Shown: one piece after another, positions 22,742-64,000 of the stretch | Layout of the letters: the number at the start of each line of letters is the position of its first letter | Position numbering within the stretch: position 1 is the first letter of the stretch | Sequence record: OV754623 | Source of the DNA: Escherichia phage UGJNEcP1 | Reading direction: 5' to 3' (one strand) | Length of the DNA stretch: 64,000 bases | Program-made: the position numbers and the translations under genes | The notes under the pieces: generated by a model | The model's database searches: none | Told to the model about the DNA's origin: nothing | What the model saw: only the letters and a program-made list of their open reading frames with translations

Positions 22742-24955
22742 TTATTTGGCCGCTTCCACGGCCTTCATGAATTTAACGATTTGAGCGACCTGTTCTTTTG
22801 AAAGAGTACCACGTCGTCCCATGTATTCTGACACAATATGATAATTGGTTTCAAATTCAATAACCATTTTATCATCATTATCGTAAGCATTATCTTTAAG
22901 CTTATCGAAAATTTTAGCACACAATTCTAACTTCCTGTTCAGGTCTGTATTAGTAGCACCTGCGAATCGATTCCATCCCCAGCGATTATTTACTGTTGAG
23001 AGTTTTGCAAAGTCTTTACTGATTTCTTTGTTCTTAGAGCTAAAATACTTACTAAGGAAGTTAAGCTCTTCATTACGAGTAATATGATTCAAATAAGGCT
23101 GTGCTCTACGACTTGGTGATACATACTCATCATAATCTACTTTATCGATTAGCATAATATAGTCATTAATTGATTTTTCAAACAAACATTCTACTTCACC
23201 AAGTTTACGAACTTTCTTAGCAATCTGTGGGCGAACTACAGTGAACTCTTTAATACCTGACAAATCGGCAATACGAGTCAAGAAATTAGAATCATAGTTC
23301 AACCAACCTTTATCTGCGTCAAGACATTCAGCGTTAGAACGATTACGAATTACAACATAACCTTGAATCTCATCAGCTTTACCGGCCGGAATAAAGAGAT
23401 CTTCTGATACCCAAACATCGTTTTCATTCTTAAAGAACCGATGAGCACTCGGCGATTTAGGACGAGGCTGCGATGAACGTTCTTTAACTTCAATCCACGG
23501 TTTAACTAATGCAAGAATTTCAGATGTCTTATAAAATTTAAGGCTATCACCAGCGAAAATAACCTTTAATCGTTCCAGAAGTTTCATTGCAACTTCATCT
23601 TCCGGGTTAATGAATAATACGCTACTACCCCATCCGGAAGGAACCTTATCAACGAGTGTTGATGCATCGGTGGAAGTCAAAGCATCGTTCAGAGCACGCA
23701 TCATTGGTACGCGGCCTTTCACATCGTCAATAACGATATCAATATGCTTACGACTAATACCTAGCAGGCTATTAATTGAAATAGTTGCAGACGAGCTTCC
23801 GCTTTCACGAATACGACGAAGTCGTGGGTCTGAAACGATATCATATACAACGCCAAGGTTGCACCATTCAGGTCCCATTTTAAAACGTTTGTACAACTCA
23901 GAATAAGTTAGTTGTTCTTTAGAGTATTTCAGTGATTCAATATTAGAACCGGCTTTTTCCATATATTTACGAGCAGAGTAACCAAGAGAATCGATTTCAC
24001 GGAATACATGACGTGGATATTCACAATCAATCCATTTCTTAGAATCTTCAGCAAATAATTTTGCATCGATTTCTGCAACACGTTTATGGATATTTGCTAC
24101 TGTACGTTTATCAAATGACAATGCTTCACGAGACGGGGCTACATCTAGTTCACCCATAGGGAATTTAATATAAGCTGTAGTGCATCGCGTCATCATCCAT
24201 GTTTGTTCTTTAATAACACTTCCGATTGGATATACAATACCGCCATAAACAGCCATGATATTACCACGTTCACCCCATGGAGCTTCCTTGGCCAAATATA
24301 CATCGTCAAATTCAGGAAAGTATTTAATATCTTTAACACCGCGAACTTCTGCAATATCACCTAGAGGACGCATAACATATGCAATTTCAGATGCGAACTT
24401 TTCAAAATCTTCTGGGTTAACAGGTACAACTACTTCTACACCCGTACGGTCATCAGGACCCATCTTATCTACAAAGGTTGGCTTAATCTGTGGACCACTG
24501 TCATCTTGGTAGATTACGTAACCACGAACTTCACCGTTGTGATAAGACGTAAGGTTAAACGTATCAGTATATGCTAGCGGAGCTTTAGAGCCGAGTCCGA
24601 ATCCACCAATGAAATCGTTACTCGATGTTTTAGTTGAAGCAAAATATGAGTTATAGATTCCTGGCTCTTCGTCATTACCTCGAATGGTGAAATCACTCAT
24701 ACCAGGACCAAAGTCTCGAACTACAAAACGTGGGTCTAAACGACCTGGTGCCTGAACAATAAACTTATCAGTGCAACCATTAAGAATTTGTCCATCGATA
24801 CAGTTTGTGATTAATTCACGTACACAAGCCAATTCTTTGTTTGTATAAAGGTCATTAGACAAAATCTTATAAACTTTGCTATTGCCTTGAATAGTAAATG
24901 CTGTGCTCTTACCGCCTGAACCAATAATCGTTTCTTTAGCCGTTTCAATAATCAT
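22742..24955 (-). CDS. rIIA: rIIA protein
   Basis: 737 aa (T4 rIIA 725 aa); synteny directly upstream of rIIB. Confidence 0.95.
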   Translation of the reverse strand: MIIETAKETIIGSGGKSTAFTIQGNSKVYKILSNDLYTNKELACVRELITNCIDGQILNGCTDKFIVQAPGRLDPRFVVRDFGPGMSDFTIRGNDEEPGIYNSYFASTKTSSNDFIGGFGLGSKAPLAYTDTFNLTSYHNGEVRGYVIYQDDSGPQIKPTFVDKMGPDDRTGVEVVVPVNPEDFEKFASEIAYVMRPLGDIAEVRGVKDIKYFPEFDDVYLAKEAPWGERGNIMAVYGGIVYPIGSVIKEQTWMMTRCTTAYIKFPMGELDVAPSREALSFDKRTVANIHKRVAEIDAKLFAEDSKKWIDCEYPRHVFREIDSLGYSARKYMEKAGSNIESLKYSKEQLTYSELYKRFKMGPEWCNLGVVYDIVSDPRLRRIRESGSSSATISINSLLGISRKHIDIVIDDVKGRVPMMRALNDALTSTDASTLVDKVPSGWGSSVLFINPEDEVAMKLLERLKVIFAGDSLKFYKTSEILALVKPWIEVKERSSQPRPKSPSAHRFFKNENDVWVSEDLFIPAGKADEIQGYVVIRNRSNAECLDADKGWLNYDSNFLTRIADLSGIKEFTVVRPQIAKKVRKLGEVECLFEKSINDYIMLIDKVDYDEYVSPSRRAQPYLNHITRNEELNFLSKYFSSKNKEISKDFAKLSTVNNRWGWNRFAGATNTDLNRKLELCAKIFDKLKDNAYDNDDKMVIEFETNYHIVSEYMGRRGTLSKEQVAQIVKFMKAVEAAK

Positions 24956-25260: not shown

Positions 25261-26361
25261 TTACGCTGTGAAGATTTTATCCCACATCGCAACAACTGCA
25301 TCTCGGTTATACTTCTTCCATACTGCTTCAGCACGTTTAACTCGAGCTTCGTATGTGTCAGTGAATTCTAATACAGCTTTTGTGTAAAGCGCAACTACTT
25401 CTTTCTTAGGAGTAGAGGAATCAATTTCTACACGCACAGTATCTGGGTCGTATTCGAATGTCGCATGAGGATAATCCTTAAAAACTAACTGGATTACAGG
25501 GACACCTTTAGAGATGGCTTCAATAGAACTATTCTCTACAGTACCTGTGTCAGGACACGTATTAATAAGTGCTTTAGCTGTTTTAAGACGTTCCATAATT
25601 TCACTGTGTGGAGCATCAATAATAACAGGATATTTAGCTGGTGGCGCCCATTTGCTTGGACAGTATCCTGCACCATTTTCGCCTAGTGCTTTAATCGCTT
25701 CAAGAGCAACATCAGTACGACGCATTTTAGTGTCATAACGTTGTGCACTAATAATCAGATCCGTCGCCGGAAGAACTTCTGGCTTTTCAGTCAAACAAAT
25801 AACCGGATAATCTTCGGCTTCAAACAACGGATTTGCTCGCCAATAATCATAATCAATTTTGTCAGTCAGACCTGAAGTCATATAACAATATTTGCGTTCA
25901 AATTCACGGAAGGCTTTAGTAGGAGCATAACTCTTACCACCATTCTTATGAATTTGAATAGTCTGGTCCCAAATTTGAACAATGCCACGAGATACCGGTT
26001 CAAATGGTGTTGCCATAAAATTCTTATGAACTTTAGAGAGACCTGCGTCTTTAATTGCCTGAACGGTTAGTTTAGTCGGTTCCATAGTAACAACAAAATC
26101 GTATTCATGGATGCCGGCTAGTTCAACAATCTTACGAGCCATAGTATAACTCATACCTAGACTGAATTTAGTCAGATGACCAACAGGATGATGATTAACT
26201 TTCCAATCACCAAATGTGTCATTATCAAAACCGATATAATCAATATCAGCACCGATGGACACAAGATATTTCAACACGTTCAAATGAACCGCTTCAAGAC
26301 CACCTTGTACACGGTCAGGATTAAATGGGACTGCACGAGATGGGATAAACATAACTTTCAT
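25261..26361 (-). CDS. putative GT4-like GT-B glycosyltransferase; candidate DNA sugar transferase
   Basis: 366 aa; N-terminal RVQGGLEAVHLNVLKYLVSIG resembles the GT4 GG.E..V..L...L...G motif; C-terminal TGTVENSSIEAISKGVPVIQ resembles the GT4 EGFG...EAMA.G.PVI donor-binding motif. Confidence 0.65.
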   Translation of the reverse strand: MKVMFIPSRAVPFNPDRVQGGLEAVHLNVLKYLVSIGADIDYIGFDNDTFGDWKVNHHPVGHLTKFSLGMSYTMARKIVELAGIHEYDFVVTMEPTKLTVQAIKDAGLSKVHKNFMATPFEPVSRGIVQIWDQTIQIHKNGGKSYAPTKAFREFERKYCYMTSGLTDKIDYDYWRANPLFEAEDYPVICLTEKPEVLPATDLIISAQRYDTKMRRTDVALEAIKALGENGAGYCPSKWAPPAKYPVIIDAPHSEIMERLKTAKALINTCPDTGTVENSSIEAISKGVPVIQLVFKDYPHATFEYDPDTVRVEIDSSTPKKEVVALYTKAVLEFTDTYEARVKRAEAVWKKYNRDAVVAMWDKIFTA

Positions 26362-28271: not shown

Positions 28272-28285
28272 AGGGCCGAAGCCCT
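28272..28285 (-). terminator. UUCG-tetraloop hairpin terminator
   Basis: minus strand AGGGC-UUCG-GCCCU followed by UUUUUGCUUUAG. Confidence 0.5.
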
Positions 28286-28728
28286 TATTTAAATTTAATT
28301 TTCTGAAGTGCATCAATTGCAGCTAAACGCCCTTGTTCACTTTTAACTGTAATGACCACATCGCCTGATACGATCACCGAACCATCAACAAATTCTATAG
28401 AGCCTTTTTTGAAATCGACAGCTGTATCTGGTTCCGGAACTTCTTCAAAGAATTTAAATTCTGCACCATAAATCAGAATATCACCTTGCATACTAATGAT
28501 TGTACGTCTAGGTCCATCGGTTTCAGCGGCAATCATTGAAACACCATAACCAATCATCTCTTCTACAATAAAATCTCTTGATAATAAAACTGTATGCAGA
28601 GTAGTGTTAAGACGTTTACCAGTTGTATTAAGAATTCTCAAGAAATTATCTTCTTGACCTTTGATAATACGATATTTCTTACCAACTTCAAAACCTTTAA
28701 AACCTTTAAAAGCCGTATTAAAAGCCAT
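28285..28728 (-). CDS. hypothetical protein (goF/39.x region)
   Basis: 147-aa ORF; no motif recognised. Confidence 0.45.
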   Translation of the reverse strand: MAFNTAFKGFKGFEVGKKYRIIKGQEDNFLRILNTTGKRLNTTLHTVLLSRDFIVEEMIGYGVSMIAAETDGPRRTIISMQGDILIYGAEFKFFEEVPEPDTAVDFKKGSIEFVDGSVIVSGDVVITVKSEQGRLAAIDALQKIKFK

Positions 28729-30620: not shown

Positions 30621-31085
30621 TTAAGCTTTACGAGGAGACACATAGCGAGTGATTTCAGATTCTTCAACAACTCGGAAGTCACCTAAGAATACAATATTGT
30701 ATAGCTTTTTACCATCTTCAACCCATTGGTCGCTGATGAAGCCGCACATAGTATCAGTTTTGCTTGGATAACCGTATTCGTCGATGTAATCAAATTCTTT
30801 ATCGGTTATAAATTCAACGCCTTTGCAAAGGGCCCATTTGAACTGTGTAGTAGGCTCAACGATATCGCTTGAAGCAAATTGGACTCGTATATGTTTTTCC
30901 AGGAATTTAGGACTTACGTAAGCATACTGGGCATCTTGTCCGCCAAAACTCGGGATGATTCGAACTTTAACTTCTTTAACACGTCCCATGCCGTTAGTAC
31001 GAAGCCCTGCTACTTCAACCAGACGACCTGCAGCTTTAGAACGAGAAGCAGGAGATACACGAAGGATTTCACCAATAGTAATCAT
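30621..31085 (-). CDS. paralog B of the tandem family
   Basis: ORF 30621..31148; likely start at MITIGEIL; N-terminus parallels paralog A and C-terminus GFISDQWVEDGKKLYNIVFLGDFRVV. Confidence 0.6.
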   Translation of the reverse strand: MITIGEILRVSPASRSKAAGRLVEVAGLRTNGMGRVKEVKVRIIPSFGGQDAQYAYVSPKFLEKHIRVQFASSDIVEPTTQFKWALCKGVEFITDKEFDYIDEYGYPSKTDTMCGFISDQWVEDGKKLYNIVFLGDFRVVEESEITRYVSPRKA

Positions 31086-31115
31086 AATTTCTCTCTCTTT
31101 GTTTAAATTGAATTC

Positions 31116-31144
31116 ACTATACTCCATCCATCCTTGGATGTACA
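31116..31144 (-). promoter_or_regulatory. early-type promoter in front of paralog B
   Basis: minus strand TGTACA-TCCAAGGATGGATGGAG-TATAGT; spacer nearly identical to the promoter in front of paralog C. Confidence 0.4.
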
Positions 31145-31147
31145 ACA

Positions 31148-31642
31148 TTAATTAAGGATATTAACCACAGCACTACGTGGAACAACACTAAAATCACCAG
31201 CATGAACAACGTTAATAAGTTCAACACCATCTTCAATCCACTGGTCAGTTACCCATCCACTCACTGGACCTGCGAACGGACGTCGAATTGAAACGGCTTT
31301 ACACAACAAATCAGTAGGCTCAATAGGCTTAATCAGAGTACCGTACATACAAGCGATGTCCATATCAAAGTGGAGACCATCTTTAACAGGTGCTTCTTCA
31401 ATCAACAGTTCAAAGTCTGTGCTTGGAAGGGCGGTAGTAGAAATTGTACCGTATGAATTTTTAATTTCTAAGAATAACCAAGGGCCTTCAGCTTGTTTGA
31501 TGAAGTTAACAATAGTGAAACTATTACCTTGAGTGGCACCTAAAATTTCACAAAACTTTTCATAAGCTCGCACTGAAGCACCGTACCAATTGATTTGTTT
31601 TTCGTCTTTCAGGATGTAAGTAGCCGTAGTATTGATATTCAT
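31148..31642 (-). CDS. paralog C of the tandem family
   Basis: 164 aa; distinct N-terminus but shared C-terminal GWVTDQWIEDGVELINVVHAGDFSVVPR. Confidence 0.6.
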   Translation of the reverse strand: MNINTTATYILKDEKQINWYGASVRAYEKFCEILGATQGNSFTIVNFIKQAEGPWLFLEIKNSYGTISTTALPSTDFELLIEEAPVKDGLHFDMDIACMYGTLIKPIEPTDLLCKAVSIRRPFAGPVSGWVTDQWIEDGVELINVVHAGDFSVVPRSAVVNILN

Positions 31643-37634: not shown

Positions 37635-37712
37635 ATTGTTCTCCTCTTGAGTAAGTAAGAATATCTTAACACAGTTTTTAGCGGTTGTAAACTGTAGAAA
37701 CAAAAAAAAAAA

Positions 37713-38020: not shown

Positions 38021-38557
38021 TCAGTAACCATTATCCTGACGTTCAAAGTTGTGTTGGTTTTTCAAGTAGTAAAGTTTAAAGATTTCTTCTGCAGTGAGTC
38101 CAAGACCCTGGAACATATTCAGAACAAAGTGGAGGATATCAATCATTTCAAATTTAATTTCAAGCTGGTCTTCAGGAGACAGTTCATCGATACGACGATT
38201 TCGATATTCAGCATGTTGTGCTTTCCAAGGCTTCCATACAGAGCTAGCGGCTTTTTCACCATTGCTCATACCACCGAGTGAAGTCAGCAGTTCACGGAAT
38301 TCATCATCAATATAATCTTTCTGATTACGCAGCCAATCAACAACATCACCAGCAGTGGCCAATTCATCAGGATGTTTGTTATGTTCAGGCTTGTCATTTG
38401 CCAGACGAACCTGTAAAGATTTCTGCATATCAAGCATTACCTGCAGTGGGTCTTTATCTTCGTGAATCAGAGCATTAAAATAAGCTTCTTCCGCTTTATC
38501 AACACCAGAAATAAGTTGTGAACATTCGTTAAAGTGTGCCATTATTTTTCCTTTCAA
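38021..38557 (-). CDS. 56: dCTPase/dUTPase gp56 candidate (all-alpha NTP pyrophosphatase)
   Basis: 178 aa (T4 gp56 171 aa); acidic E..E....E..D-like pattern; synteny between soc and 61. Confidence 0.55.
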   Translation of the reverse strand: MKGKIMAHFNECSQLISGVDKAEEAYFNALIHEDKDPLQVMLDMQKSLQVRLANDKPEHNKHPDELATAGDVVDWLRNQKDYIDDEFRELLTSLGGMSNGEKAASSVWKPWKAQHAEYRNRRIDELSPEDQLEIKFEMIDILHFVLNMFQGLGLTAEEIFKLYYLKNQHNFERQDNGY

Positions 38558-41581: not shown

Positions 41582-41830
41582 TTATTCTTTTTCGCGAATA
41601 ATAATTACTTGTTGAGGCTGCTGAGCAGATTTCTTTTCGGCAACGATAGACCAAATTAAAGTTCCAATCCAACCAACCATCGTCCAGTTAAAGAGTAAAG
41701 ATACAAAGAAGATTGCTGCTGTGCTTTTTGTGCCACGAATAAGTGCGATTACCCAAGGCAACATGTAAATGATGATTGAACCAATACCTGCGATTAAAAC
41801 TGCTACTGAACTAGCCACGAATAATTCCAT
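41582..41830 (-). CDS. small inner-membrane protein (two TM segments), immunity-like candidate
   Basis: 82 aa, two hydrophobic helices; adjacent to sp; function unverified. Confidence 0.45.
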   Translation of the reverse strand: MELFVASSVAVLIAGIGSIIIYMLPWVIALIRGTKSTAAIFFVSLLFNWTMVGWIGTLIWSIVAEKKSAQQPQQVIIIREKE

Positions 41831-41891
41831 GATAATTTCCTCTTGATTTGTTATGTTTATAGTATCTTATTTTAACTTTGGTGTAAACCAA

Positions 41892-42260
41892 TTAATTAAA
41901 TTTGTTTAAACGTTCAATACACTGGACGTAGTTATTCGCGATTTGTTTCTGGGTAGGCTCTTTACCAGTTGTTTCAACATAGCGAATGAATGCGATTTCA
42001 GTAGCCTGTAAGCAATGTTCTTTAACGCGTTGTTCCTTTGACAATGCTACAGTATCAGAGTCACGATAACGTTGAGCATGAGCGTCAGCTTGAATCATTC
42101 GATTACCTACAGTAACCGGGTCTTCCACTTCAACTTTAGGTTGTTCATATTGTTTAACATTCGGATTGTAAATCAGTTGGCCAACGTTATTAGGGATAAA
42201 GCCATGAGCACCACATCCGGTTAATCCGAATACCATTGCTAAAGCGATTAATTTTTTCAT
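41892..42260 (-). CDS. putative lipoprotein
   Basis: 122 aa; signal peptide with lipobox LTGC. Confidence 0.55.
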   Translation of the reverse strand: MKKLIALAMVFGLTGCGAHGFIPNNVGQLIYNPNVKQYEQPKVEVEDPVTVGNRMIQADAHAQRYRDSDTVALSKEQRVKEHCLQATEIAFIRYVETTGKEPTQKQIANNYVQCIERLNKFN

Positions 42261-46615: not shown

Positions 46616-47164
46616 TTAACGAGCCCATTTAATGATTTCTGTAATCAAATTATTACGTTCGCTTGCATTAAATCCTATAACTTTGTTAGAACCATCATGA
46701 TTAAGTAATTGATACGTTTGGATTTTGTTATGAATTGCAAACTCTTCAAAATGTGAAATGACTGTATTAAAACCGAATGAAGACAAAGTAATAAGGTCGT
46801 CTTCAAAACTTTCAGTCATTTCGTTACGTGTTAAAATAATTGTGAACACATCATGGTTTTGGCAAAGACGAACATAATCCTGTTCATAAACGTCAAGAAC
46901 CGAGTCCGCATCTTGTCGAATACGTCCATAAACCCAGTTACTAATATATCCACGGTCTAATAGATAAATCTTAGTAGGGTCTAAATAATTCAACATCGTT
47001 TCGAAACAGCCAACTTCATTTCGAGACTTAACATCGAAACGCCCATCAACTGTTCGTTTAGGGAAATCAATCTTTACATATCTTTCACTAATTTCCATTA
47101 TATCATTAATGAAAGTTGTTTTACCAGCATTATCCGGCCCGTCTACTAAAATAATTTTAGCCAT
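46616..47164 (-). CDS. P-loop kinase (thymidylate/deoxynucleoside-kinase-like fold)
   Basis: 182 aa; Walker A GPDNAGKTT and downstream LLDRGY (DR motif); occupies part of the T4 beta-gt slot. Confidence 0.6.
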   Translation of the reverse strand: MAKIILVDGPDNAGKTTFINDIMEISERYVKIDFPKRTVDGRFDVKSRNEVGCFETMLNYLDPTKIYLLDRGYISNWVYGRIRQDADSVLDVYEQDYVRLCQNHDVFTIILTRNEMTESFEDDLITLSSFGFNTVISHFEEFAIHNKIQTYQLLNHDGSNKVIGFNASERNNLITEIIKWAR

Positions 47165-47165
47165 T

Positions 47166-48065
47166 TTATTCCTCGATTACGACATCTTCGTATTTAGGTA
47201 TATTATACGGTGAAGAAATTAAAGCATTAAAGTAGATGAACTCACCAAGACCTGGATGGAATACTTCTTCAGGATTTTCGAAATATTGAATCTTCGGACG
47301 TCCTTTAAGAATTTGATAGTACTCAGTTTTAGTTGGATTAAAAATTCGAATCAGCGCTTCTTCAGGATACTTATTTCTGTCGAAACTATTATTTGGATCA
47401 GTTATATAAAGCGGTTGACCTAATTGAATTGCGCATTCAACCACTTGTTCAAAACGATAGCATGGGTCACTAATTCGAAATGGATGAAAAATACCATCTA
47501 GATGAATAGGAGCCAAATCACCTACAAGACGCTGCATGACGGAAGGACGTATAACTTTCTGCGTTACGATAATCTTATTACCATCTGCACCTGCGTTAAC
47601 CAGCACTTCTTTTTGACGTTCATTCAACATAGTAGTTTGAAGTGAACGATTAACAGACAACATGTCGGTTTTTAAGAATTCATCAATATAAAAACGTGGT
47701 TTATTAGGGTCTGCAGTGATATTGAAATTGAATTCTACATCAAAAGCGCCGTCATATCCAGTGATATCTGTGATTAGAAAATCACAATCATAATAAGCAA
47801 TTAATGAATCAACCACAAATTCATTTTCAGACCAAAAATATTTACGAGTGTTATACGCGTTATCTTTATACCATAATGGAACAAACTTAAATTCTGGGAA
47901 AAGACGTTCACATTCTTTAATATCAGATGCATTACGTGGATATGTAATCACATCACCCGGATTAGCACGGTGCAAATGAAGTTGGAAGTTGCCATCCTTA
48001 AGGATAGCATACTGTCCAGTTTCATAAGACCGCATACTCAAGATAGGTACGCGGAAAATAGCCAT
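47166..48065 (-). CDS. hypothetical protein in the beta-gt slot (candidate transferase)
   Basis: 299 aa; no confident motif; positional replacement of T4 beta-glucosyltransferase; stop/start abutting neighbours. Confidence 0.5.
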   Translation of the reverse strand: MAIFRVPILSMRSYETGQYAILKDGNFQLHLHRANPGDVITYPRNASDIKECERLFPEFKFVPLWYKDNAYNTRKYFWSENEFVVDSLIAYYDCDFLITDITGYDGAFDVEFNFNITADPNKPRFYIDEFLKTDMLSVNRSLQTTMLNERQKEVLVNAGADGNKIIVTQKVIRPSVMQRLVGDLAPIHLDGIFHPFRISDPCYRFEQVVECAIQLGQPLYITDPNNSFDRNKYPEEALIRIFNPTKTEYYQILKGRPKIQYFENPEEVFHPGLGEFIYFNALISSPYNIPKYEDVVIEE

Positions 48066-48781
48066 TAGTCAAGGAATCCTTTAACATAATCAAAATCACG
48101 TTCAAACACATGGGCACTTACCATGGTATGAGTATAATCACCAACTTCTACACCACATTCGTTAGCGATATAATGAAGTAATTTTCCTTGGAGATAAAAA
48201 TCCAACTGCATAACAACAGCACAGTTCTGGGAACGCATATGACAGTGGGTATAAAGCTTACCATCACGAATATAATAAGTCACTGAGTCAGTACATGGAT
48301 ATTCAAGCGTTTCGTCCGAATCAAGCAAAGCCTGATCAGAACTTTCTAGAATTTGGAACACAACTCTTCGGGAGTTAGGCTTCTCTTTAAGTTCTTTTAG
48401 AAGAGCTGGTAATTGAGCCGCAATGCGAGGGCCATAGAAAGTGTTGAAGTTCGCCGGCAAAACATCTGATTTTGGTTTAGAAATAAATTTAGCGACATTA
48501 GGATATGCCTTAAACGCTTCTTCTGCGTTGGTACCACCAGAAATCATAAACTTCCAGAAGTCTTCGGCATATTCATAAGAGATGCGGTTAATACGTGGGT
48601 CGGTCATTTTGAATGATGATGGAGTGTCAACAACCACTGTCATAGACCCAATTTCATTACAACGTCCAATACGAGAATCAGTTACGAATTCCGGGTTTTC
48701 TAAAATTTCACGATTGACTGCTTTAAATGCGGCTTGAAAATCTGCGGCTTTGATATATTTCATTGTGTTATGTTTTCCCAT
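48065..48781 (-). CDS. 42: thymidylate-synthase-fold pyrimidine C5-modifying enzyme, probable dCMP hydroxymethylase gp42
   Basis: 238 aa; YPCTDSVTYYIRDGKLYTHCHMRSQN has the catalytic-Cys and R/S motifs of the TS/dCMP-hydroxymethylase fold; synteny. Confidence 0.65.
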   Translation of the reverse strand: MGKHNTMKYIKAADFQAAFKAVNREILENPEFVTDSRIGRCNEIGSMTVVVDTPSSFKMTDPRINRISYEYAEDFWKFMISGGTNAEEAFKAYPNVAKFISKPKSDVLPANFNTFYGPRIAAQLPALLKELKEKPNSRRVVFQILESSDQALLDSDETLEYPCTDSVTYYIRDGKLYTHCHMRSQNCAVVMQLDFYLQGKLLHYIANECGVEVGDYTHTMVSAHVFERDFDYVKGFLD

Positions 48782-48823: not shown

Positions 48824-49063
48824 TTATTTGAATTTCTTGACAATGTTGATATAACGTAAAGCTTCAGCATCGATACTTCCAAGAACACTATGAAGAAATG
48901 CATCAGCGTAATATTCTAGTTGAACAGGTTCTTTAATCACTTTAGCCGCTTTAGTTTCAAACAGGCCCATCAGGGCCTTTTTAAGAATTTGTTCGTTAGT
49001 GTTCAGTTTAATAGTCAAAATCTCTTCGTTAAGTTGGTGGTTAAAAGTTTTTCTAGAAATCAT
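48824..49063 (-). CDS. hypothetical small protein
   Basis: 79-aa ORF with ATGA-type overlap with the upstream gene. Confidence 0.45.
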   Translation of the reverse strand: MISRKTFNHQLNEEILTIKLNTNEQILKKALMGLFETKAAKVIKEPVQLEYYADAFLHSVLGSIDAEALRYINIVKKFK

Positions 49064-50220
49064 TCCGGGTACCTCAAAGCGTCATCAGAGTTAGTTATAT
49101 CAATAATAGATATAGAGTTTTCTGCTAACCCGTTTTTAGATAATTGACGTTTATAATATCTTTCACAATATGTACACGTCGTCCCGCAGATTTCATTAGC
49201 ACAATCGAAATCTGGATGTCTGAACCACCTTTTTTCTAAAAAGCCATCTAACAAAGAGGTTTCAATATTTACTGTATGTGAAAACTCAGTTTCGTTTTCA
49301 AGAGTGAAAATAGTCTCTAAAGGCTTCCACAGTTCTAACAAATTACCTTCAAACTTTTCAGAAGCGTATGCTTCAAGAACTTTCAAAATGTAGTCTGTGC
49401 TACCTGTACGTCCTGAAACTTTGAATTGAGTGATACCAATATCATTATAAAGTTTCAAATCTTGAGGACGAACAAAACGAGTTCTCAACCAGTTAAATGG
49501 GTCTGTATCACGAGCTTTAATACAGTGCTGCATAGGATATCCGTTTAAGGATTTAGCATCATCGGCTGTAACATCAGTACTATGGAAAATATAGCAAGAG
49601 TCACGATAGCTACAATGTGTTGTATACCCTTTACCAGCATTAGAACAGAACTCATTTACAAGAACTTCAAATATTATATTGTTCTTATTGCAAAACTCTG
49701 CTGCACGCTTCAGGAAAGAAACTGAACGGTTCTTATGAATTCCACAGCAGACCTTTTTGATATTATATTGGTCATGCAAGTATTTGATTTGAGTTACAGC
49801 ATCGACATGTAGAATTGTTGAAACTTCAATCTCAATGTCTTTATTGACTTCACGAACAATTTCCATAACAACAGGGTTAGCGATAGTAATACGCCATACG
49901 CCTATTGACCAAAGATACTGAACATAATCCTGAATAGCTTTCTTCTTCCACTCAACTAGTTCTCTTTTTGAACCAGGATTTATCGTGTTGAGTGTATAGT
50001 TAAAGCAAATACCTAATTCGTTACAACGTTTAACGTAATCTTCTAACATCTTTTTGTCAACGTCAGGAAGCCTAAAATCAGGTCTGGCTGCTACAAAAGC
50101 CATTTCTCTTGTAGAGCCGTATACTTCATTTATCAAGCTATTAGGATAAGTTTTATTGAGCTCTACGATTTTATCAAGAAGAGCTAAATCAAAATTCGTT
50201 CCGATTTTAAAAGTATTCAT
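49060..50220 (-). CDS. U32-family (collagenase-like / Fe-S hydroxylase-like) enzyme candidate
   Basis: 386 aa; NYTLNTIN and VLVNEFCSNAGKGYTTHCSY resemble U32 TIM-barrel motifs (partial match to the E.F..G..C....G.C..S signature); C-terminal C-x4-C-x3-C-x2-C cluster. Confidence 0.45.
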   Translation of the reverse strand: MNTFKIGTNFDLALLDKIVELNKTYPNSLINEVYGSTREMAFVAARPDFRLPDVDKKMLEDYVKRCNELGICFNYTLNTINPGSKRELVEWKKKAIQDYVQYLWSIGVWRITIANPVVMEIVREVNKDIEIEVSTILHVDAVTQIKYLHDQYNIKKVCCGIHKNRSVSFLKRAAEFCNKNNIIFEVLVNEFCSNAGKGYTTHCSYRDSCYIFHSTDVTADDAKSLNGYPMQHCIKARDTDPFNWLRTRFVRPQDLKLYNDIGITQFKVSGRTGSTDYILKVLEAYASEKFEGNLLELWKPLETIFTLENETEFSHTVNIETSLLDGFLEKRWFRHPDFDCANEICGTTCTYCERYYKRQLSKNGLAENSISIIDITNSDDALRYPE

Positions 50221-50274
50221 TTTTTACATCTCGCGTTAATTGATGCGATGGTTTTTTTGCAGGTCTTACTTAAA

Positions 50275-50679
50275 TTATTGTAGATTCGGTTTATATGATT
50301 TAAATGTTTCGAATTCGCCTTTATTCATAAGAGCTTTGAATTCGTCAGGACGCATAGCTTTGTCGTCGATAATCCAATCATATACTGGTTTATGTGTTAG
50401 CAAATTATGGTACTTCAAGCCAATGTTTGCCAAGTTCTGAATCAGACTTGGGAGAATGTCAATTGCTATACGACCAGGACCTACTGACTTCATACCGCGA
50501 GCAGTGTAAAGCGTTATGGTATGCCCTGCATCATACAGGGCATTAATGGCAGACACCATTTCGACGTCTGGTTTGAAGTTCACGTAATCACGATTGTTAT
50601 TCCACTCTGTTATACAATCATCGACATCAAAACAAAGATTAAGCATGTTTTCTACACGGTGCATTAGATTCGTTCCCAT
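50275..50679 (-). CDS. HAD-superfamily phosphatase-like protein
   Basis: 134 aa; LCFDVDDCIT (DxD motif I), TLYTARG (motif II), IIDDK (motif IV). Confidence 0.55.
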   Translation of the reverse strand: MGTNLMHRVENMLNLCFDVDDCITEWNNNRDYVNFKPDVEMVSAINALYDAGHTITLYTARGMKSVGPGRIAIDILPSLIQNLANIGLKYHNLLTHKPVYDWIIDDKAMRPDEFKALMNKGEFETFKSYKPNLQ

Positions 50680-52349
50680 TGATGAGTGATATCGCCACCG
50701 ATTGGACGATAAGAAACACCAGTTTCTTTATCAGTTAGTACCCATTTACCAGGATTTTTTGTAATCAGAGTAGCCGTTACAGGCTCTGCTACGTCATAAC
50801 TAATAGAGCCGTCTTGAAGTACACGGCCCATGTTACGTAATTGCTTAGTCAGAAGTTCCATACCTTTATAATATGCGGCTACCGCTTTAAGTGGATTATT
50901 CTTGAAATAACCACCTAATGCAATCCAGATAATTGCCACCGCCAAATGATGATACTCGTTAAACGAACTCATCTTTCCATATTTGTAAATTAATGGATTG
51001 ATGTTAATAGTCACATTACAAGTTGTTTCATCAATAGTAAACTGTCCCCAGGTCGGATTAGCATTGAATTCATCATAACCTGAAACAGCATAAAGCACTT
51101 TAGCTTCATCGTACAATTTTGGCCCGTAAATCTTGGTTTCGCCAAAATATCCACGAGGGTCGATAAACTTGACTTCGCCGTTATCAGTAATCATAGTATT
51201 ACTGAAGTTCGGGTCACCGTGAATAACAGAGTACTGTCCCTGAGAACGGTTATGATAACGAATAAGGTGTTCTAAAGCTTGTTTCAGCATTGGCTTCAGA
51301 CGTCCAATCTTAGTGTAGTTCACGTGTGTGATTTTACCAAATGAATCAATCAATGGTTGAATGCTTTCACAACGATCAATAACTTTCGTATAGAATTCTT
51401 TAGTGAAATCACGACGAACAGTTTCAGGACTTACAAAATAAGTGTCTGTGCTGAATTTCAGTGCATCTAAAATTGCATCAACAATTTGTGGACGAGCAAG
51501 ACTTGATTTGGATTTAATATATTCAAATGCCGGCTTACCTTTAATGCGTTCCATTTCAAAGTTATTTTCATTAACAGAAACTAACTGAGGAACTGAATCT
51601 GATTTCACTTTAAGATACCATGAAATCTCATCTTTCTGAAGAGCTCGGCCCTGTTCGGTTAATGCGAATTTAGTTACAGTTTCTTCACCAATTTCAACTG
51701 CATTAAAACTACGATTAAGTTCACGAACTTCATGAGCCTTTTCAAGTTTAGGCATATCACCTAAATCAATTAGATTCATAAGCTCTGATTTATTGAATGC
51801 ACTCCCGTAAAGGAATTCTACAAAATCACGTCCTTTGCAATATTCGTGAATTTCCTCATCAGTAGAACCCATGTAGAATTCCCAGTCTTTGAACTGATAA
51901 ATTCCTACAACATTACCACCTGTTGAACCTACGTTAGTGATATTTTCACCGTCGAAATTATATCGACATTCGTCACCCTTAACATAGATTGCGTTAACAT
52001 TCCAAGACCATGAACCAAAATCAGGAATAATATCACACCAGTTAACAATTACGTTATGGCCGTCTAAATCTTTGTGTAATTTAGCAAGAGCATAAGCAGA
52101 ACCATACGCTTCATCAACTGTACGAATAGTCACATTGAACCCTTCTTGCTCACAATAAGCTCGAACAGTTTCAGCAAATTTTGAATGAACTACTACAATA
52201 ATTTCATCTGCGCCAAGGTCAGAATAAATTGTATACAAATTGCTCAGAATAGTGTCTTGTTTATAGTTAACAAGCACCTTAGGAATATGATGCGTTATTG
52301 GATACAAACGAGTTGCCAGTCCAGCACCAAGAATAACAGCTTTTTTCAT
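50664..52349 (-). CDS. bifunctional sugar-1-phosphate nucleotidyltransferase / APH-like sugar kinase
   Basis: 561 aa; N-terminal MKKAVILGAGLATRLYPITHHIPKVLV (nucleotidyltransferase G-loop); C-terminal VIHGDPNFSNTMI...FIDPRGYFGE (HGD...N and ID motifs of the aminoglycoside/choline-kinase fold). Confidence 0.75.
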   Translation of the reverse strand: MKKAVILGAGLATRLYPITHHIPKVLVNYKQDTILSNLYTIYSDLGADEIIVVVHSKFAETVRAYCEQEGFNVTIRTVDEAYGSAYALAKLHKDLDGHNVIVNWCDIIPDFGSWSWNVNAIYVKGDECRYNFDGENITNVGSTGGNVVGIYQFKDWEFYMGSTDEEIHEYCKGRDFVEFLYGSAFNKSELMNLIDLGDMPKLEKAHEVRELNRSFNAVEIGEETVTKFALTEQGRALQKDEISWYLKVKSDSVPQLVSVNENNFEMERIKGKPAFEYIKSKSSLARPQIVDAILDALKFSTDTYFVSPETVRRDFTKEFYTKVIDRCESIQPLIDSFGKITHVNYTKIGRLKPMLKQALEHLIRYHNRSQGQYSVIHGDPNFSNTMITDNGEVKFIDPRGYFGETKIYGPKLYDEAKVLYAVSGYDEFNANPTWGQFTIDETTCNVTININPLIYKYGKMSSFNEYHHLAVAIIWIALGGYFKNNPLKAVAAYYKGMELLTKQLRNMGRVLQDGSISYDVAEPVTATLITKNPGKWVLTDKETGVSYRPIGGDITHQWERI

Positions 52350-52390
52350 GTTGAAGTCCTCATTGGTAAGTAGGAGTATTGTACACTATT

Positions 52391-52534
52391 CTAGTTAAAG
52401 CATTCATACTTTGCTTGTAGTCCAATCATAATCCATCCGATTATAAGAGTCGGAATCATTACCGGAGCCGTTAAGCTCCAGTAGATAGTCATGACAAGCA
52501 TCAATAGTAAAAGTCCTATTGTTATTGCTTTCAT
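52391..52534 (-). CDS. small hydrophobic peptide
   Basis: 47-aa ORF MKAITIGLLLLMLVMTIYWSL...; ATGA overlap with the SIS gene stop; below track cutoff. Confidence 0.3.
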   Translation of the reverse strand: MKAITIGLLLLMLVMTIYWSLTAPVMIPTLIIGWIMIGLQAKYECFN

Positions 52535-53166
52535 TGTTCGCCTCGTAACATGGCACCTAGTGCACCGCCTGGATGGAACTTAAGGAAGTCATTAGAGGTA
52601 AATCCACGTTCAGACGAAAGGTTGATAGCAAACGTATCGATAAGCGCTAACAACAATGTAGTGGACATAGTCGGAGCCAGAGAATTCTCATCAACCTCTA
52701 CCGCGATGCCTGTACAGAAAGAGTAATCAAAAAGGGCTTCATTTTCTTGCGGAATGTCTGGGTTACAATGCAACAGAATCTGTTTGACGTTCGGTCGAAT
52801 CATTTTAAGATGCTTAGCCACGCCTATCATTTCTTCAGTTTTACCAGAACGACTAATATGAATCAACACATCATTAGGCGCAATGAATCCTGCGTCACCG
52901 TGAGAATAATGTCCAGTGTTCAAGTACATACTCGGGATACCGAGTGAAGCAAATGTCTCAGAAGCTTTAGTTGCAATATTAGCATTCTTACCAACACCTG
53001 TAATAATTACTCGGCTTTCATAATTACTAAGTCCAGGGCGTCGAAGAGTTTCTAGAATAGCATTATAACGAGCAGGGTTTTGACTAATTACTTTGGCCAT
53101 AGCGGCCAAAGAAGAAGCTTGTTTTATGATTGCGTCAATAGCGATAGTAATAGGAGTAGTTTTCAT
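52531..53166 (-). CDS. SIS-domain sugar-phosphate isomerase (arabinose-5-phosphate isomerase / GmhA-like)
   Basis: 211 aa; ITGVGKNANIA and HISRSGKTEE are canonical SIS phosphosugar-binding motifs; no CBS domains. Confidence 0.75.
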   Translation of the reverse strand: MKTTPITIAIDAIIKQASSLAAMAKVISQNPARYNAILETLRRPGLSNYESRVIITGVGKNANIATKASETFASLGIPSMYLNTGHYSHGDAGFIAPNDVLIHISRSGKTEEMIGVAKHLKMIRPNVKQILLHCNPDIPQENEALFDYSFCTGIAVEVDENSLAPTMSTTLLLALIDTFAINLSSERGFTSNDFLKFHPGGALGAMLRGEQ

Positions 53167-61314: not shown

Positions 61315-61543
61315 TACACGCTTCGGCCATTTTAAGAATAGAGCCAGGAGTATCGTTGTCCATTATATTAAAGCTAAATTCAATAGCCCAGTCAGTGCAG
61401 ACATGAACTGCTTTAACTTCATTGCCTTCAACGCGTAATGGCTCAATCCAATACTTGATAGTGTTCTCGAATCCATCATCATCTTTAACGTCCATTTCAA
61501 CTTCAAGCCTGAGTCCAGCATTGTTAAATTCATCTAAAGTCAT
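61286..61543 (-). CDS. hypothetical small protein (46.2 position)
   Basis: 85-aa acidic ORF. Confidence 0.5.
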   Translation of the reverse strand: MTLDEFNNAGLRLEVEMDVKDDDGFENTIKYWIEPLRVEGNEVKAVHVCTDWAIEFSFNIMDNDTPGSILKMAEACIEDAYNDED

Positions 61544-62559
61544 TGTGTTGCCTCAACATAAAGTTCGTTGGAATATTTGACCAGCGCTTCTCTGTCTTCA
61601 TCTGAGATATCCGGAATCGCGTCAATATATTCTTTAATGATATCTTGAAGCGATTTAATCTCGATTTCCTGGTCGTCATCAGATTCAACACTGTTATCAA
61701 CTTTAGAAACCATGCGAAGAGAGTGAACTACTTTTTCAAGTTCAGATTCAAACTTAGTCAACTCTGAATCAATTTCTGATACTATAACACGTACGGCTAG
61801 ATTAGTATAATCAGAATAATTGATTTTGCCTTTAAACGGATAAGTGATTCGTCGATGCCATGTTGTTTCATTAGGAATAAATTCCATACGTTCAACATCA
61901 GTGTCAAATACCCAGAATCCGCGAGGGTCGTTCTCATCACCTGCAGTAAGGGTCCATGGTGTCCCAATATATTTGACGTTAGCAGCTTCAGAGATTGTGT
62001 GGAAGTGGCCAGAACAGACTTGTTTATAGGTCTTTAAGAAATCAGGTTCAAGCCCATGAGACTTCATTCCTTTATAGAAATAAAAGCCATTCAGTTCCCA
62101 GTGCCCAACACAATACGCTGCGGAAGAAGTCTTGATGTGCTCTAAGATTTCACCTGTATTTTCTTCACACATCCATGGAACGATATCAATCAGACATCCA
62201 TCAAAATCTACAGTAGTTGGATGCTCATAAATAGTAAAGTTTTCAAATTGAGTTAACAATTCAGAAACAGTGTTAGGTGTTATTGTATTCTTAAACGCCA
62301 TGTCATGGTTTCCTACCGTGACATGAACGTGAATGCCTGCTTTAGAAATCATATCAACGATTTCACGATTGAATTCCATCGTACGATGTGTTATTGCTTT
62401 ACGGACGTCAAACCAATCACCGCACTGAATCCAAGTTTTAATCCCGTGTTTCTTAGAGTATTCAATTGCTTGACGAATACCATCACGTTGAATGTCTTGA
62501 ACCCATGGGTCGTCTTGTTTGACTCCGATATGGAAGTCGCCTAAGTACAAAATTTTCAT
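61540..62559 (-). CDS. 47: recombination nuclease gp47 (Mre11/SbcD-like)
   Basis: 339 aa as T4 gp47; phosphoesterase motifs LGDFH, GDWFD, GNHD, GHFH. Confidence 0.93.
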   Translation of the reverse strand: MKILYLGDFHIGVKQDDPWVQDIQRDGIRQAIEYSKKHGIKTWIQCGDWFDVRKAITHRTMEFNREIVDMISKAGIHVHVTVGNHDMAFKNTITPNTVSELLTQFENFTIYEHPTTVDFDGCLIDIVPWMCEENTGEILEHIKTSSAAYCVGHWELNGFYFYKGMKSHGLEPDFLKTYKQVCSGHFHTISEAANVKYIGTPWTLTAGDENDPRGFWVFDTDVERMEFIPNETTWHRRITYPFKGKINYSDYTNLAVRVIVSEIDSELTKFESELEKVVHSLRMVSKVDNSVESDDDQEIEIKSLQDIIKEYIDAIPDISDEDREALVKYSNELYVEATQ

Positions 62560-62610
62560 ATTATTTCCTCATTAGTTAATTCATTTTATCATCCGTTTAT
62601 AAAGCAAAAA

Positions 62611-62628
62611 AGGAACTCCGAAGAGTTC
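62611..62628 (-). terminator. UUCG-tetraloop hairpin terminator upstream of gene 47
   Basis: minus strand GGAACUC-UUCG-GAGUUCC followed by UUUUUUGC. Confidence 0.6.
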
Positions 62629-62841
62629 CTATCCACATAGTACACCATACAGAGGCTCATTTGAACTTTTAAATCGAATGGGCTTGTATGTAATAGTTCC
62701 TTCGGCTTTAGCTTTATCATAAGACTCTTTAAAACGTCTCATTCTTTCTGCTTTGCCTTTACGGATTTTATCGAAATTTTCAGAAGTCGGGATGTTCGTC
62801 ATGCATAAGCACCTCTCAGAAAATGCCTAAATCAATTTCTC

Positions 62842-63063
62842 TCATCGTTTCCACCATTTCTTAACTTGAAATGAATCGACCCACACGAGTTGTTTTGGGT
62901 CTGCCTTTACAATAGGCGGACAAATTTCTGTAATAGAACCGTCGTGATATTCCTTTTCAGAAATTTTAACACAAAGAGGACCTCCCAATTTAAGGGTGAA
63001 CCCTGCGTTCAGCTTCAGACGTTTAAACTTTGTTTGAACTAGCGCCATTAATGATGTCCTCAA
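62842..63063 (-). CDS. hypothetical small protein
   Basis: 73-aa ORF in the 47-55 interval. Confidence 0.4.
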   Translation of the reverse strand: MRTSLMALVQTKFKRLKLNAGFTLKLGGPLCVKISEKEYHDGSITEICPPIVKADPKQLVWVDSFQVKKWWKR

Positions 63064-63346
63064 TAGCCTGACGAGTAGTAACCCACTGGATTTTAATTAA
63101 CTTGTCATTATATGGTTGTCGTAGAATATCCCGAGATTTCTTAATAGCATATTCGTAAGCTTCGAAGTTGTTTTGAATTGCTGCTTCTTGAGCGTGAGCA
63201 TAAAGACGGTTTAGTTCAAAACGATTCTTTTTAAGAATCTTTTCGGATTTTTTACGTGCTTCAGCTTCATTTTTCTTTTGGATTTCTTGTAGCATTTTAG
63301 CTACTGCATCTTCTGCTTCTTTATTTTCAATAATCTCGGTAGTCAT
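63023..63346 (-). CDS. hypothetical protein
   Basis: 107-aa Lys/Glu-rich ORF. Confidence 0.45.
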   Translation of the reverse strand: MTTEIIENKEAEDAVAKMLQEIQKKNEAEARKKSEKILKKNRFELNRLYAHAQEAAIQNNFEAYEYAIKKSRDILRQPYNDKLIKIQWVTTRQAIEDIINGASSNKV

Positions 63347-63347
63347 A

Positions 63348-63563
63348 TTATCTCATTAAATTAAAATAAAAACGTCCATCCTCTTCAATACAGAACTCAT
63401 ACTCAACCGGAGTCCCATTTATCGAAAATGACACGTCGTGTGGGTTCAAAGGGTCGATGTCAAAATTAATTTTAAATTCACGACCCAACAGTTTTACCAA
63501 ATAAGGGATTGCTTCGTCAAAAGGTTCTTCTAAGTAGTTAGAGATGTCAATTGTCGTCCTCAT
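63348..63563 (-). CDS. hypothetical small protein
   Basis: ORF 63348..63641, trimmed to internal MRTT start to limit overlap with gene 55. Confidence 0.4.
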
Positions 63564-64000
63564 ATAAAAAATCCAAACTAGGCGAATCGCTAACAACTTC
63601 CTTCTTTTCAGCCCCAGGAGCTTTATAAGCGGATTCTTCATAATGCGTCATTTTATCGTAGATGTCTTGAATAAACGTTTCATCTACCAACGCTACCATA
63701 TCATCGTCATGACTGTCGTAGACATTATGAACGAAGTAACTATATTTCTTTGCAACTTCCTTACGTTCTTTTTTGATACGTTGGACAAAAGCATTAAAAC
63801 AAGCTCGAGTTATGTATGCATGTGGGTTATTGTACTTAGTTTCGTCGAAATTATGAAGTCCCTTAATAGAGGCTTCAATCCCATCTGCAATCATCTCCTG
63901 CTTCCAAGACTGGGTATATCCTGAAAAGTTGAAACGTTTAGACAGGCCTTCGGCAATAAGCATAATTGCTAAACCGATGGTATCATTCTGACGAATAATT
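63547..64000 (-). CDS. 55: late sigma factor gp55 (N-terminus beyond window end)
   Basis: [41 protein letters not shown] and downstream sequence match T4 gp55 as recalled; ORF continues past position 64000. Confidence 0.9.

Follow-up and report, generated by a model that had tools for sequence, protein, structure and literature searches.

In T4, the genes between the recombination gene 47 and the late sigma factor gene 55 follow the order 47 / 47.1 / a-gt / mobB / a-gt.2 / a-gt.3 / a-gt.4 / a-gt.5 / 55. A different situation was described for RB69 by Thomas et al. in 2018, who detected arabinose in RB69 DNA and reported that its genome lacks homologues of a-gt, b-gt, and ba-gt (PMC6024577). 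More recently, RB69 DNA was shown to contain mono- and poly-arabinosylated 5-hydroxycytosine, with an ether linkage direct to C5 as established by NMR and MS (Lee et al. 2026, PMC13326640). According to the latter study, RB69-type phages make no hydroxymethylcytosine (hmC); 5-hydroxycytosine is made and then arabinosylated. RB69 gp48 is the flavin-associated 5-hydroxy-dCMP (5hodCMP) synthase, an assignment based on in vivo expression, 18-O2 labelling, and the bound flavin, and the modification cluster is kept across Mosigviruses and other Straboviridae (PMC13326640). Table 1 of that study marks as "confirmed experimentally" DLP3 gp76, gp77, and gp80 and RB69 gp48, not RB69 gp3 or gp46:47. The lack of T4-type glucosylation in this group is established knowledge (PMC6024577, PMC13326640).

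Here, we analyzed a stretch of 64,000 nucleotides from Escherichia phage UGJNEcP1 (OV754623), hereafter the window, in which a preliminary description made from the sequence had pointed to a missing alpha-glucosyltransferase gene between genes 47 and 55. We propose that the window comes from a Mosigvirus without T4-type glucosyltransferases, in which cytosine would be modified by the different, published route leading to arabinosylated 5-hydroxycytosine, a reading to which we assign a probability of about 0.93. The present analysis provides the gene content, orthologies, and genome-wide absence of Agt and Bgt, and the enzymology and chemistry are those of the RB69 literature.

Relationship of the window to RB69 and its relatives

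Over the 50 kb compared, the window is >99.9% identical to Escherichia phage UGJNEcP2 (OV877511.1), the differences amounting to insertions of 12 nt and 1 nt and 3 substitutions; a byte-identical database record for the window was not found. Positions 61500 to 64000 match UGJNEcP2 (Straboviridae, Tevenvirinae, Mosigvirus) at 100%. The window is also 97 to 99% identical to JS09, mar005P1, Shf125875, and APCEc01, and its 47-55 region matches many Mosigvirus records at 98 to 99% identity, among them Shf125875, APCEc01, PhAPEC2, and JS09. Judged by this nucleotide identity to RB69 and relatives, the source of the window is a Mosigvirus, an RB69-like T-even relative that is essentially UGJNEcP2. 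JS09 and Shf125875, both among the top matches to the window, were named by Thomas et al. as having ORF003c in common with RB69 (PMC6024577).

Gene content between genes 47 and 55

The left boundary of the interval is gene 47 (61540-62559, minus strand), a 339-aa ORF for an SbcD/Mre11-like recombination nuclease subunit whose product is 75.8% identical to T4 gp47 over the full length and 98.5% identical to RB69 gp47, with the same annotation in OV877511.1. The right boundary is gene 55 for the late sigma factor, which extends on the minus strand from 63547 to beyond 64000, its 5' part lying past the window end; its product is 90% identical to T4 gp55, and the 150 aa encoded within the window are 100% identical to RB69 gp55. 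The limits given earlier for the interval, 62560 to 63563, are accurate: the first is the base next to the gene 47 start codon, and the last lies at the start codon of a-gt.5. Where three or four small ORFs of 57 to 107 aa had been announced, exactly four are present, all on the minus strand and of 57, 68, 107, and 71 aa in order from gene 47.

The first of these (62629-62802, minus strand, 57 aa) is an orthologue of a-gt.2, with 76% identity to the T4 protein (tBLASTn E value of 8e-24) and 94.7% to RB69p067 "a-gt.2"; it belongs to Pfam DUF5486 (E value of 4.5e-28) and phrog_2140. The a-gt.3 orthologue (62842-63048, minus strand; 68 aa, or 73 aa from an upstream TTG) is 71% identical to its T4 counterpart (E value of 4e-29) and 100% identical to RB69p068, and falls in phrog_1648 with no Pfam family. 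The a-gt.4 orthologue (63023-63346, minus strand, 107 aa) shows 58% identity to T4 a-gt.4 (E value of 7e-32) and 100% to RB69p069, with matches to Pfam DUF2654 (E value of 1e-27) and phrog_951. Finally, the a-gt.5 orthologue (63348-63563, minus strand, 71 aa) is 47% identical to T4 a-gt.5 (E value of 7e-14) and 100% identical to RB69p070 over 68 aa, and is assigned to Pfam DUF5491 and phrog_1169.

Neither the ORF list nor tBLASTn revealed an ORF of ~400 aa or any Agt similarity in the 47-55 interval, which also lacks the T4 segment 47.1 / a-gt / mobB. The statement that no alpha-glucosyltransferase gene lies between 47 and 55 is thus confirmed, the place being held by four a-gt.2 to a-gt.5 orthologues devoid of Agt similarity; because this statement concerns gene content, a chance test is inapplicable. 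T4 resembles the window in its flanks 47 and 55 and in the order and overlaps of a-gt.2 to a-gt.5, the overlaps being 26 nt between the a-gt.4 3' end and the a-gt.3 start and 17 nt between the a-gt.5 start and the gene 55 end. RB69 has the very layout of the window, 47 / a-gt.2 / a-gt.3 / a-gt.4 / a-gt.5 / 55, with 98.0% DNA identity over the interval, and in its reference genome the four genes have been named a-gt.2 to a-gt.5 since deposition. These four genes are retained regardless of the type of DNA modification system.

Pfam and PHROGs searches for a function of a-gt.2 to a-gt.5 returned only families without known function, and a full-text literature search for the same purpose yielded a single incidental mention. 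A "head maturation protease" label for a-gt.2 (phrog_17354), a match that aligns 34 residues to a profile of 62 positions, was treated as an annotation artefact.

A probable terminator and a putative middle promoter upstream of gene 47

The spacer between a-gt.2 and gene 47 is 69 bp long, identical in sequence in RB69, and no a-gt remnants were found in it. As previously noted from the sequence, the interval contains a UUCG hairpin terminator, and this was borne out by a terminator scan, by RNA folding, and by a terminator annotation in the related record MH243438. The hairpin (62611-62630, minus strand) reads from 62630 to 62611 as AGGAACUC-UUCG-GAGUUCCU, then UUUUUUGC, with an 8-bp stem; its start falls within the a-gt.2 stop codon and it is followed by a U-run at 62606-62611.

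In T4, MotA-dependent middle promoters have as consensus a TGCTTTA element followed by TAnnnT at 11 to 13 nt. Reading of the window sequence gives a MotA-box-like element for gene 47 (62583-62608, minus strand) made of TTTGCTTTA at 62608-62600, an 11-nt spacer, and TAAAAT at 62588-62583; a GAGGA ribosome-binding site at 62570-62566 and the gene 47 ATG come next. The fit of these elements and of their spacing to the middle-promoter consensus argues for a spacer composed of a probable terminator and then a probable middle promoter of gene 47. Termination would then be expected at about 62606, and a MotA-dependent start ~7 nt downstream of 62583. Together, the hairpin, the U-run, the MotA-box-like and -10 elements, and the ribosome-binding site account for the entire 69 bp. 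A sigma-70 promoter scan of the region yielded 11 sites versus 7.7 +/- 3.1 in shuffles, thus without enrichment.

Such a well-formed module, the same in RB69, bears on the idea that a-gt is missing only from this isolate, through a recent deletion or an assembly artefact. We consider this idea extremely unlikely: the contiguous 47-55 interval occurs in at least 146 independent phage records at 95 to 100% identity, the RB69 reference genome among them, and among the matches listed no close Mosigvirus relative carries a-gt at the site.

Genome-wide search for Agt and Bgt

The genome searched, of 169.5 kb, consisted of the window and of flanks taken from the near-identical OV877511.1. A tBLASTn search with T4 Agt and Bgt against the whole genome had been set beforehand as the test of the missing glucosylation genes. 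Run on the rebuilt genome with E values up to 10, it gave no significant match for either protein, the best E value being 0.011 for Agt (29% identity over 69 aa) and 4.3 for Bgt. Similarly, phmmer (--max) against all 1522 six-frame stop-to-stop segments of at least 40 aa gave no significant match, with best E values of 0.057 for Agt and 1.1 for Bgt; such sequence searches are blind to a glucosyltransferase of an unrelated family. In a Pfam scan, T4 Agt as positive control matched AGT (PF11440) at 2.9e-260, a control that covered the Agt family only, and AGT was absent from the nine phage ORFs scanned beside it. These nine were the 200-aa ORF containing the best Agt match, six large ORFs outside the window, and the window ORFs at 25261-26361 and 52531-53166. 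The six large hypothetical ORFs were considered as hidden glycosyltransferases and rejected, Pfam giving only DUF7235, DUF7275/7277, AAA-like, and RlaP.

These results bear directly on the possibility that a-gt and/or b-gt moved elsewhere in the genome and that the phage still glucosylates its DNA. The T4 gene order is indeed not fully kept, with imm and imm.1 upstream of gene 41 and not beside 42, and the weak Agt match by tBLASTn, at OV877511.1 133299-133478, could be taken for a relocated gene. Nevertheless, this match lies inside a 200-aa ORF (132963-133565) for which the Pfam scan gives no family and phmmer an E value of 0.057 versus Agt; Bgt has no match below an E value of 1 by tBLASTn or phmmer; and Pfam AGT was detected in 0 of the 6 large ORFs outside the window. 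The same negative result was obtained for RB69 by Thomas et al. (PMC6024577), and we see hardly any chance that the genes were relocated.

Within the phage collection, 657 records (hosts Escherichia, Shigella, Klebsiella, and others) contain an Agt homologue and 126 a Bgt homologue; no known RB69 relative is among the 65 Agt/Bgt homologue matches listed. Of the genes for T4-type hmC glucosylation, Agt, Bgt, and a gp42 orthologue were not found; for the T2/T6 beta-alpha-gt, absence has been reported for RB69 (PMC6024577). Altogether, the comparisons support a phage that probably carries no T4-type DNA glucosyltransferase. They also uphold the earlier suggestion that it does not use the T4 glucosylation system, since Agt and Bgt orthologues were not found elsewhere in the rebuilt genome.

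The RB69 cytosine-modification genes in the window

All RB69 cytosine-modification genes are present in the window, in RB69 order and with 94 to 100% protein identity. The orthologue of RB69 gp3 (ORF003c), a predicted beta-arabinosyltransferase 2 (25261-26361, minus strand), is 99.5% identical to RB69p003 over 366 aa and lies between rIIA.1 and gene 39; its arabinosyltransferase role has been proposed (PMC6024577; PMC13326640). Gene 56 for the dCTPase (38021-38542, minus strand) encodes a product 97.7% identical to RB69 gp56 and is annotated as nucleoside triphosphate pyrophosphohydrolase in OV877511.1.

The T4 segA/beta-gt slot, which extends from uvsX to the thymidylate-synthase homologue, holds the orthologues of RB69 gp45 and gp46:47 instead. 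The former (46616-47164, minus strand), a thymidylate-kinase-like nucleotide kinase following Table 1 of PMC13326640, is 98.4% identical to RB69p045. The latter (47166-48065, minus strand) is a predicted DNA arabinosyltransferase 1 of GT-B fold, 98 to 99% identical to RB69p046 and RB69p047. The preliminary description had regarded the beta-gt slot as replaced, and this was correct: T4 b-gt and segA give way in the window to a nucleotide kinase and a predicted arabinosyltransferase 1. The gp46:47 orthologue, for which a Pfam scan gives no match, is a single intact ORF of 299 aa onto which RB69p046 and RB69p047 map end to end, and the split between RB69 genes 46 and 47 has been ascribed to a sequencing error (PMC13326640). 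In the 2003 RB69 record, unlike the window, both arabinosyltransferase 1 and the nucleotidyltransferase-kinase described below are split.

The T4 gene 42 position is taken by a thymidylate-synthase homologue (48065-48781, minus strand; Pfam Thymidylat_synt), the orthologue of the 5-hydroxy-dCMP synthase RB69 gp48. It is 98.7% identical to RB69 gp48 over 238 aa, with 3 substitutions (A17T, N85D, and V107A, window residue first), versus only 24.8% to T4 gp42. The gp49 orthologue follows at 48824-49063.

Next comes the gp50 orthologue (49060-50220, minus strand), peptidase-U32-like (Pfam Peptidase_U32) and 99.2% identical to RB69p050; for RB69 gp50, Table 1 of PMC13326640 gives "sugar or heterocycle reductase". 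The gp51 orthologue (50275-50679, minus strand), 99.2% identical to RB69p051, is a predicted arabinose-5-phosphate phosphatase (PMC13326640). The gp52:53 orthologue (50664-52349, minus strand) is a single 561-aa ORF that combines an N-terminal nucleotidyltransferase and a C-terminal sugar kinase (Pfam NTP_transferase and weak kinase families); its identities to RB69p052 and RB69p053 are 99.4% and 99.5%, and its predicted role is in UDP-arabinose synthesis (PMC13326640). The gp55 orthologue, an arabinose-5-phosphate isomerase (52531-53166, minus strand; Pfam SIS), is 100% identical to RB69p055. The donor genes gp50, gp51, gp52:53, and gp55 are thus present together with gp45 and gp56, at 97.7 to 100% identity, so that the genes of an RB69-type system (5hodCMP synthase, two arabinosyltransferases, and NDP-arabinose donor genes) were all found. 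A dNMP kinase is annotated outside the window, at OV877511.1 139257-139991.

Proposed route of cytosine modification

We propose that alpha- and beta-glucosyltransferase genes are lacking because this group instead attaches arabinose to the 5-hydroxycytosine of its DNA. In this model, dCMP would be converted to 5-hydroxy-dCMP by the gp48-type thymidylate-synthase homologue (48065-48781). The product would be phosphorylated and incorporated into DNA, while gp56 would clear dCTP from the pool. Arabinose would then be added by the two GT-B arabinosyltransferases (47166-48065 and 25261-26361), whose action with arabinose is assigned by homology to the RB69 proteins. The donor would be an NDP-arabinose made by the phage, the predicted synthesis genes being those at 49060-53166. 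Given its near-identity to RB69, we infer that this phage probably carries the same DNA modification.

Another model, that of Thomas et al. in 2018, would have hmC made as in T4 and arabinose attached to it (ara-hmC). It was the original interpretation for RB69 (PMC6024577) and fits with a thymidylate-synthase homologue at the gene 42 position that keeps the dCMP-type active-site features (per PMC13326640). However, this homologue is the orthologue of gp48 rather than of gp42, as the identities of 98.7% and 24.8% indicate, and 5hodCMP synthesis by RB69 gp48 together with the ether linkage direct to C5 in RB69 DNA (PMC13326640) argues against an hmC intermediate. We thus regard the ara-hmC model as improbable for this phage, T4 gp42 being replaced in the window by a 25%-identical homologue of presumably different chemistry.

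Returning to the arabinosylated 5-hydroxycytosine reading, the phage most likely makes no hydroxymethylcytosine at all. The conclusion that the phage does not glucosylate its DNA as T4 does was, therefore, supported, and it can be refined: by near-identity to RB69, hydroxymethylcytosine is most likely absent as well. With a window from the RB69 group, annotations carried over from T4 can be misleading, e.g., "gene 42 = dCMP hydroxymethylase" or "hmC DNA". DNA of this kind is resistant to many type II restriction enzymes, as already reported in the literature, and defences recognising glucosyl-hmC or hmC are not expected to act on it. Insensitivity to GmrSD, Brig1, or McrBC-type defences would thus be expected, but would bear only indirectly on the modification: the phage may have anti-restriction functions of its own, an "anti-restriction nuclease" CDS being annotated in the window region and an IPI homologue being encoded by RB69, and enzymes of the GmrSD family can be promiscuous. 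Accordingly, in the probable absence of hydroxymethylcytosine, neither the glucosyl-hmC-dependent nor the hmC-dependent nucleases, whose comparison had been put forward as a check, would be expected to act on this phage DNA.

In a lineage with no T4-type glucosyltransferases, the 47-55 interval would therefore keep only what the T4 relatives share there. This shared remainder would comprise a-gt.2 to a-gt.5, which are small early genes, together with the gene 47 middle promoter and the terminator that follows a-gt.2.

The a-gt.2-to-47 site in T4, Klebsiella phage Mineola, and the window

T4 and the window both have a UUCG hairpin directly after a-gt.2 and then a MotA-box-like element, whereas T4 has an extra unit of ~2.2 kb (mobB, a-gt, and 47.1) between a-gt.2 and 47. 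The first T4 module, directly after a-gt.2 and before mobB, is made of the orthologous hairpin and of ATTGCTTTA / TAAAAT. The second one, after a-gt and before 47.1, is made of GGGC UUCG GCCC, then TTAGCTTTA / TATAAT. Two hairpin-plus-MotA-box copies thus bound the mobB/a-gt/47.1 unit of T4, against a single one in the window.

Klebsiella phage Mineola (Jiaodavirus) shares with the window the arrangement 55 / a-gt.5 / a-gt.4 / a-gt.3 / a-gt.2 / ... / 47 with a terminator before 47. Unlike the window, it carries an a-gt (66% identity to T4 Agt) between a-gt.2 and 47, without mobB or 47.1. As T4 and Mineola both carry a-gt between a-gt.2 and 47, this slot, empty in Mosigvirus, is occupied in two other genera; it is a conserved site, filled in some genera and empty here.

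Two modules around the T4 unit versus one in Mosigvirus suggest gain or loss of a self-contained cassette. An attractive but tentative hypothesis, which we hold to be rather less than even in probability, could be that the glucosyltransferase unit is a transcription cassette gained or lost by recombination between the modules; equally tentatively, a second possibility is that the function of a-gt.2 to a-gt.5, whatever their names suggest, could be unrelated to DNA glycosylation. The only small addition of the present study is that the terminator/middle-promoter module occurs twice around the T4 a-gt cassette but once in the window.

Hairpin-promoter modules and the a-gt site

In T4, two similar modules, each composed of a UUCG hairpin, a (T/A)GCTTTA motif and a -10 element, flank the mobB, a-gt and 47.1 block (modules at 24733 and 22625 in L003, the T4 sequence used here), whereas the window (62583-62630) and RB69 each carry one copy. 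From the sequence arrangement, two modules in T4 versus one in the window and RB69 suggest a cassette-like gain or loss at the site between a-gt.2 and gene 47. The terminator scan also returned a terminator-like hairpin on the plus strand at 62899-62921, inside a-gt.3 and antisense to it; as 2 sites were observed versus 1.3 expected in shuffles, this hairpin is probably due to chance.

Outside the window, the best match to T4 Agt was a 200-aa hypothetical ORF of OV877511.1, the record of phage UGJNEcP2 (132963-133565, corresponding to 30964-31566 in the L005 frame for that part of the record). This match was non-significant (tBLASTn, E of 0.011; phmmer, E of 0.057), and a Pfam scan assigned the ORF to no family; the match was therefore regarded as noise.

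Arabinosylation genes and gene order

Two predicted arabinosylation genes are each a single intact ORF in the window, namely arabinosyltransferase 1 (47166-48065, 299 aa) and the nucleotidyltransferase-kinase (50664-52349, 561 aa), whereas the RB69 reference record (2003) splits them into ORF046c/047c and ORF052c/053c, respectively. The RB69 46/47 split has been attributed to a sequencing error (PMC13326640), and the intact ORF at 47166-48065 agrees with this view.

Gene order differs in places from that of T4. A 227-aa GIY-YIG homing-endonuclease-like ORF (2288-2971), sharing 34% identity with T4 SegA, is flanked by the helicase loader gene 59 and the late transcription regulator gene 33; T4 segA is located elsewhere, adjoining b-gt. 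The genes imm and imm.1 (41585-42254) are found upstream of gene 41, beside sp, and not between 42 and 43 as in T4, a local rearrangement shared with RB69.

Relative to OV877511.1, the window carries a 12-nt insertion, GTATTAAAAGCC, at 28715, adding 4 aa near the N-terminus of a 147-aa ORF (28285-28728). One further nucleotide is inserted at 37712, apparently in the intergenic region immediately preceding soc, and the bases at positions 2399, 13151 and 15836 are substituted. The two sequences are thus near-identical but distinct.
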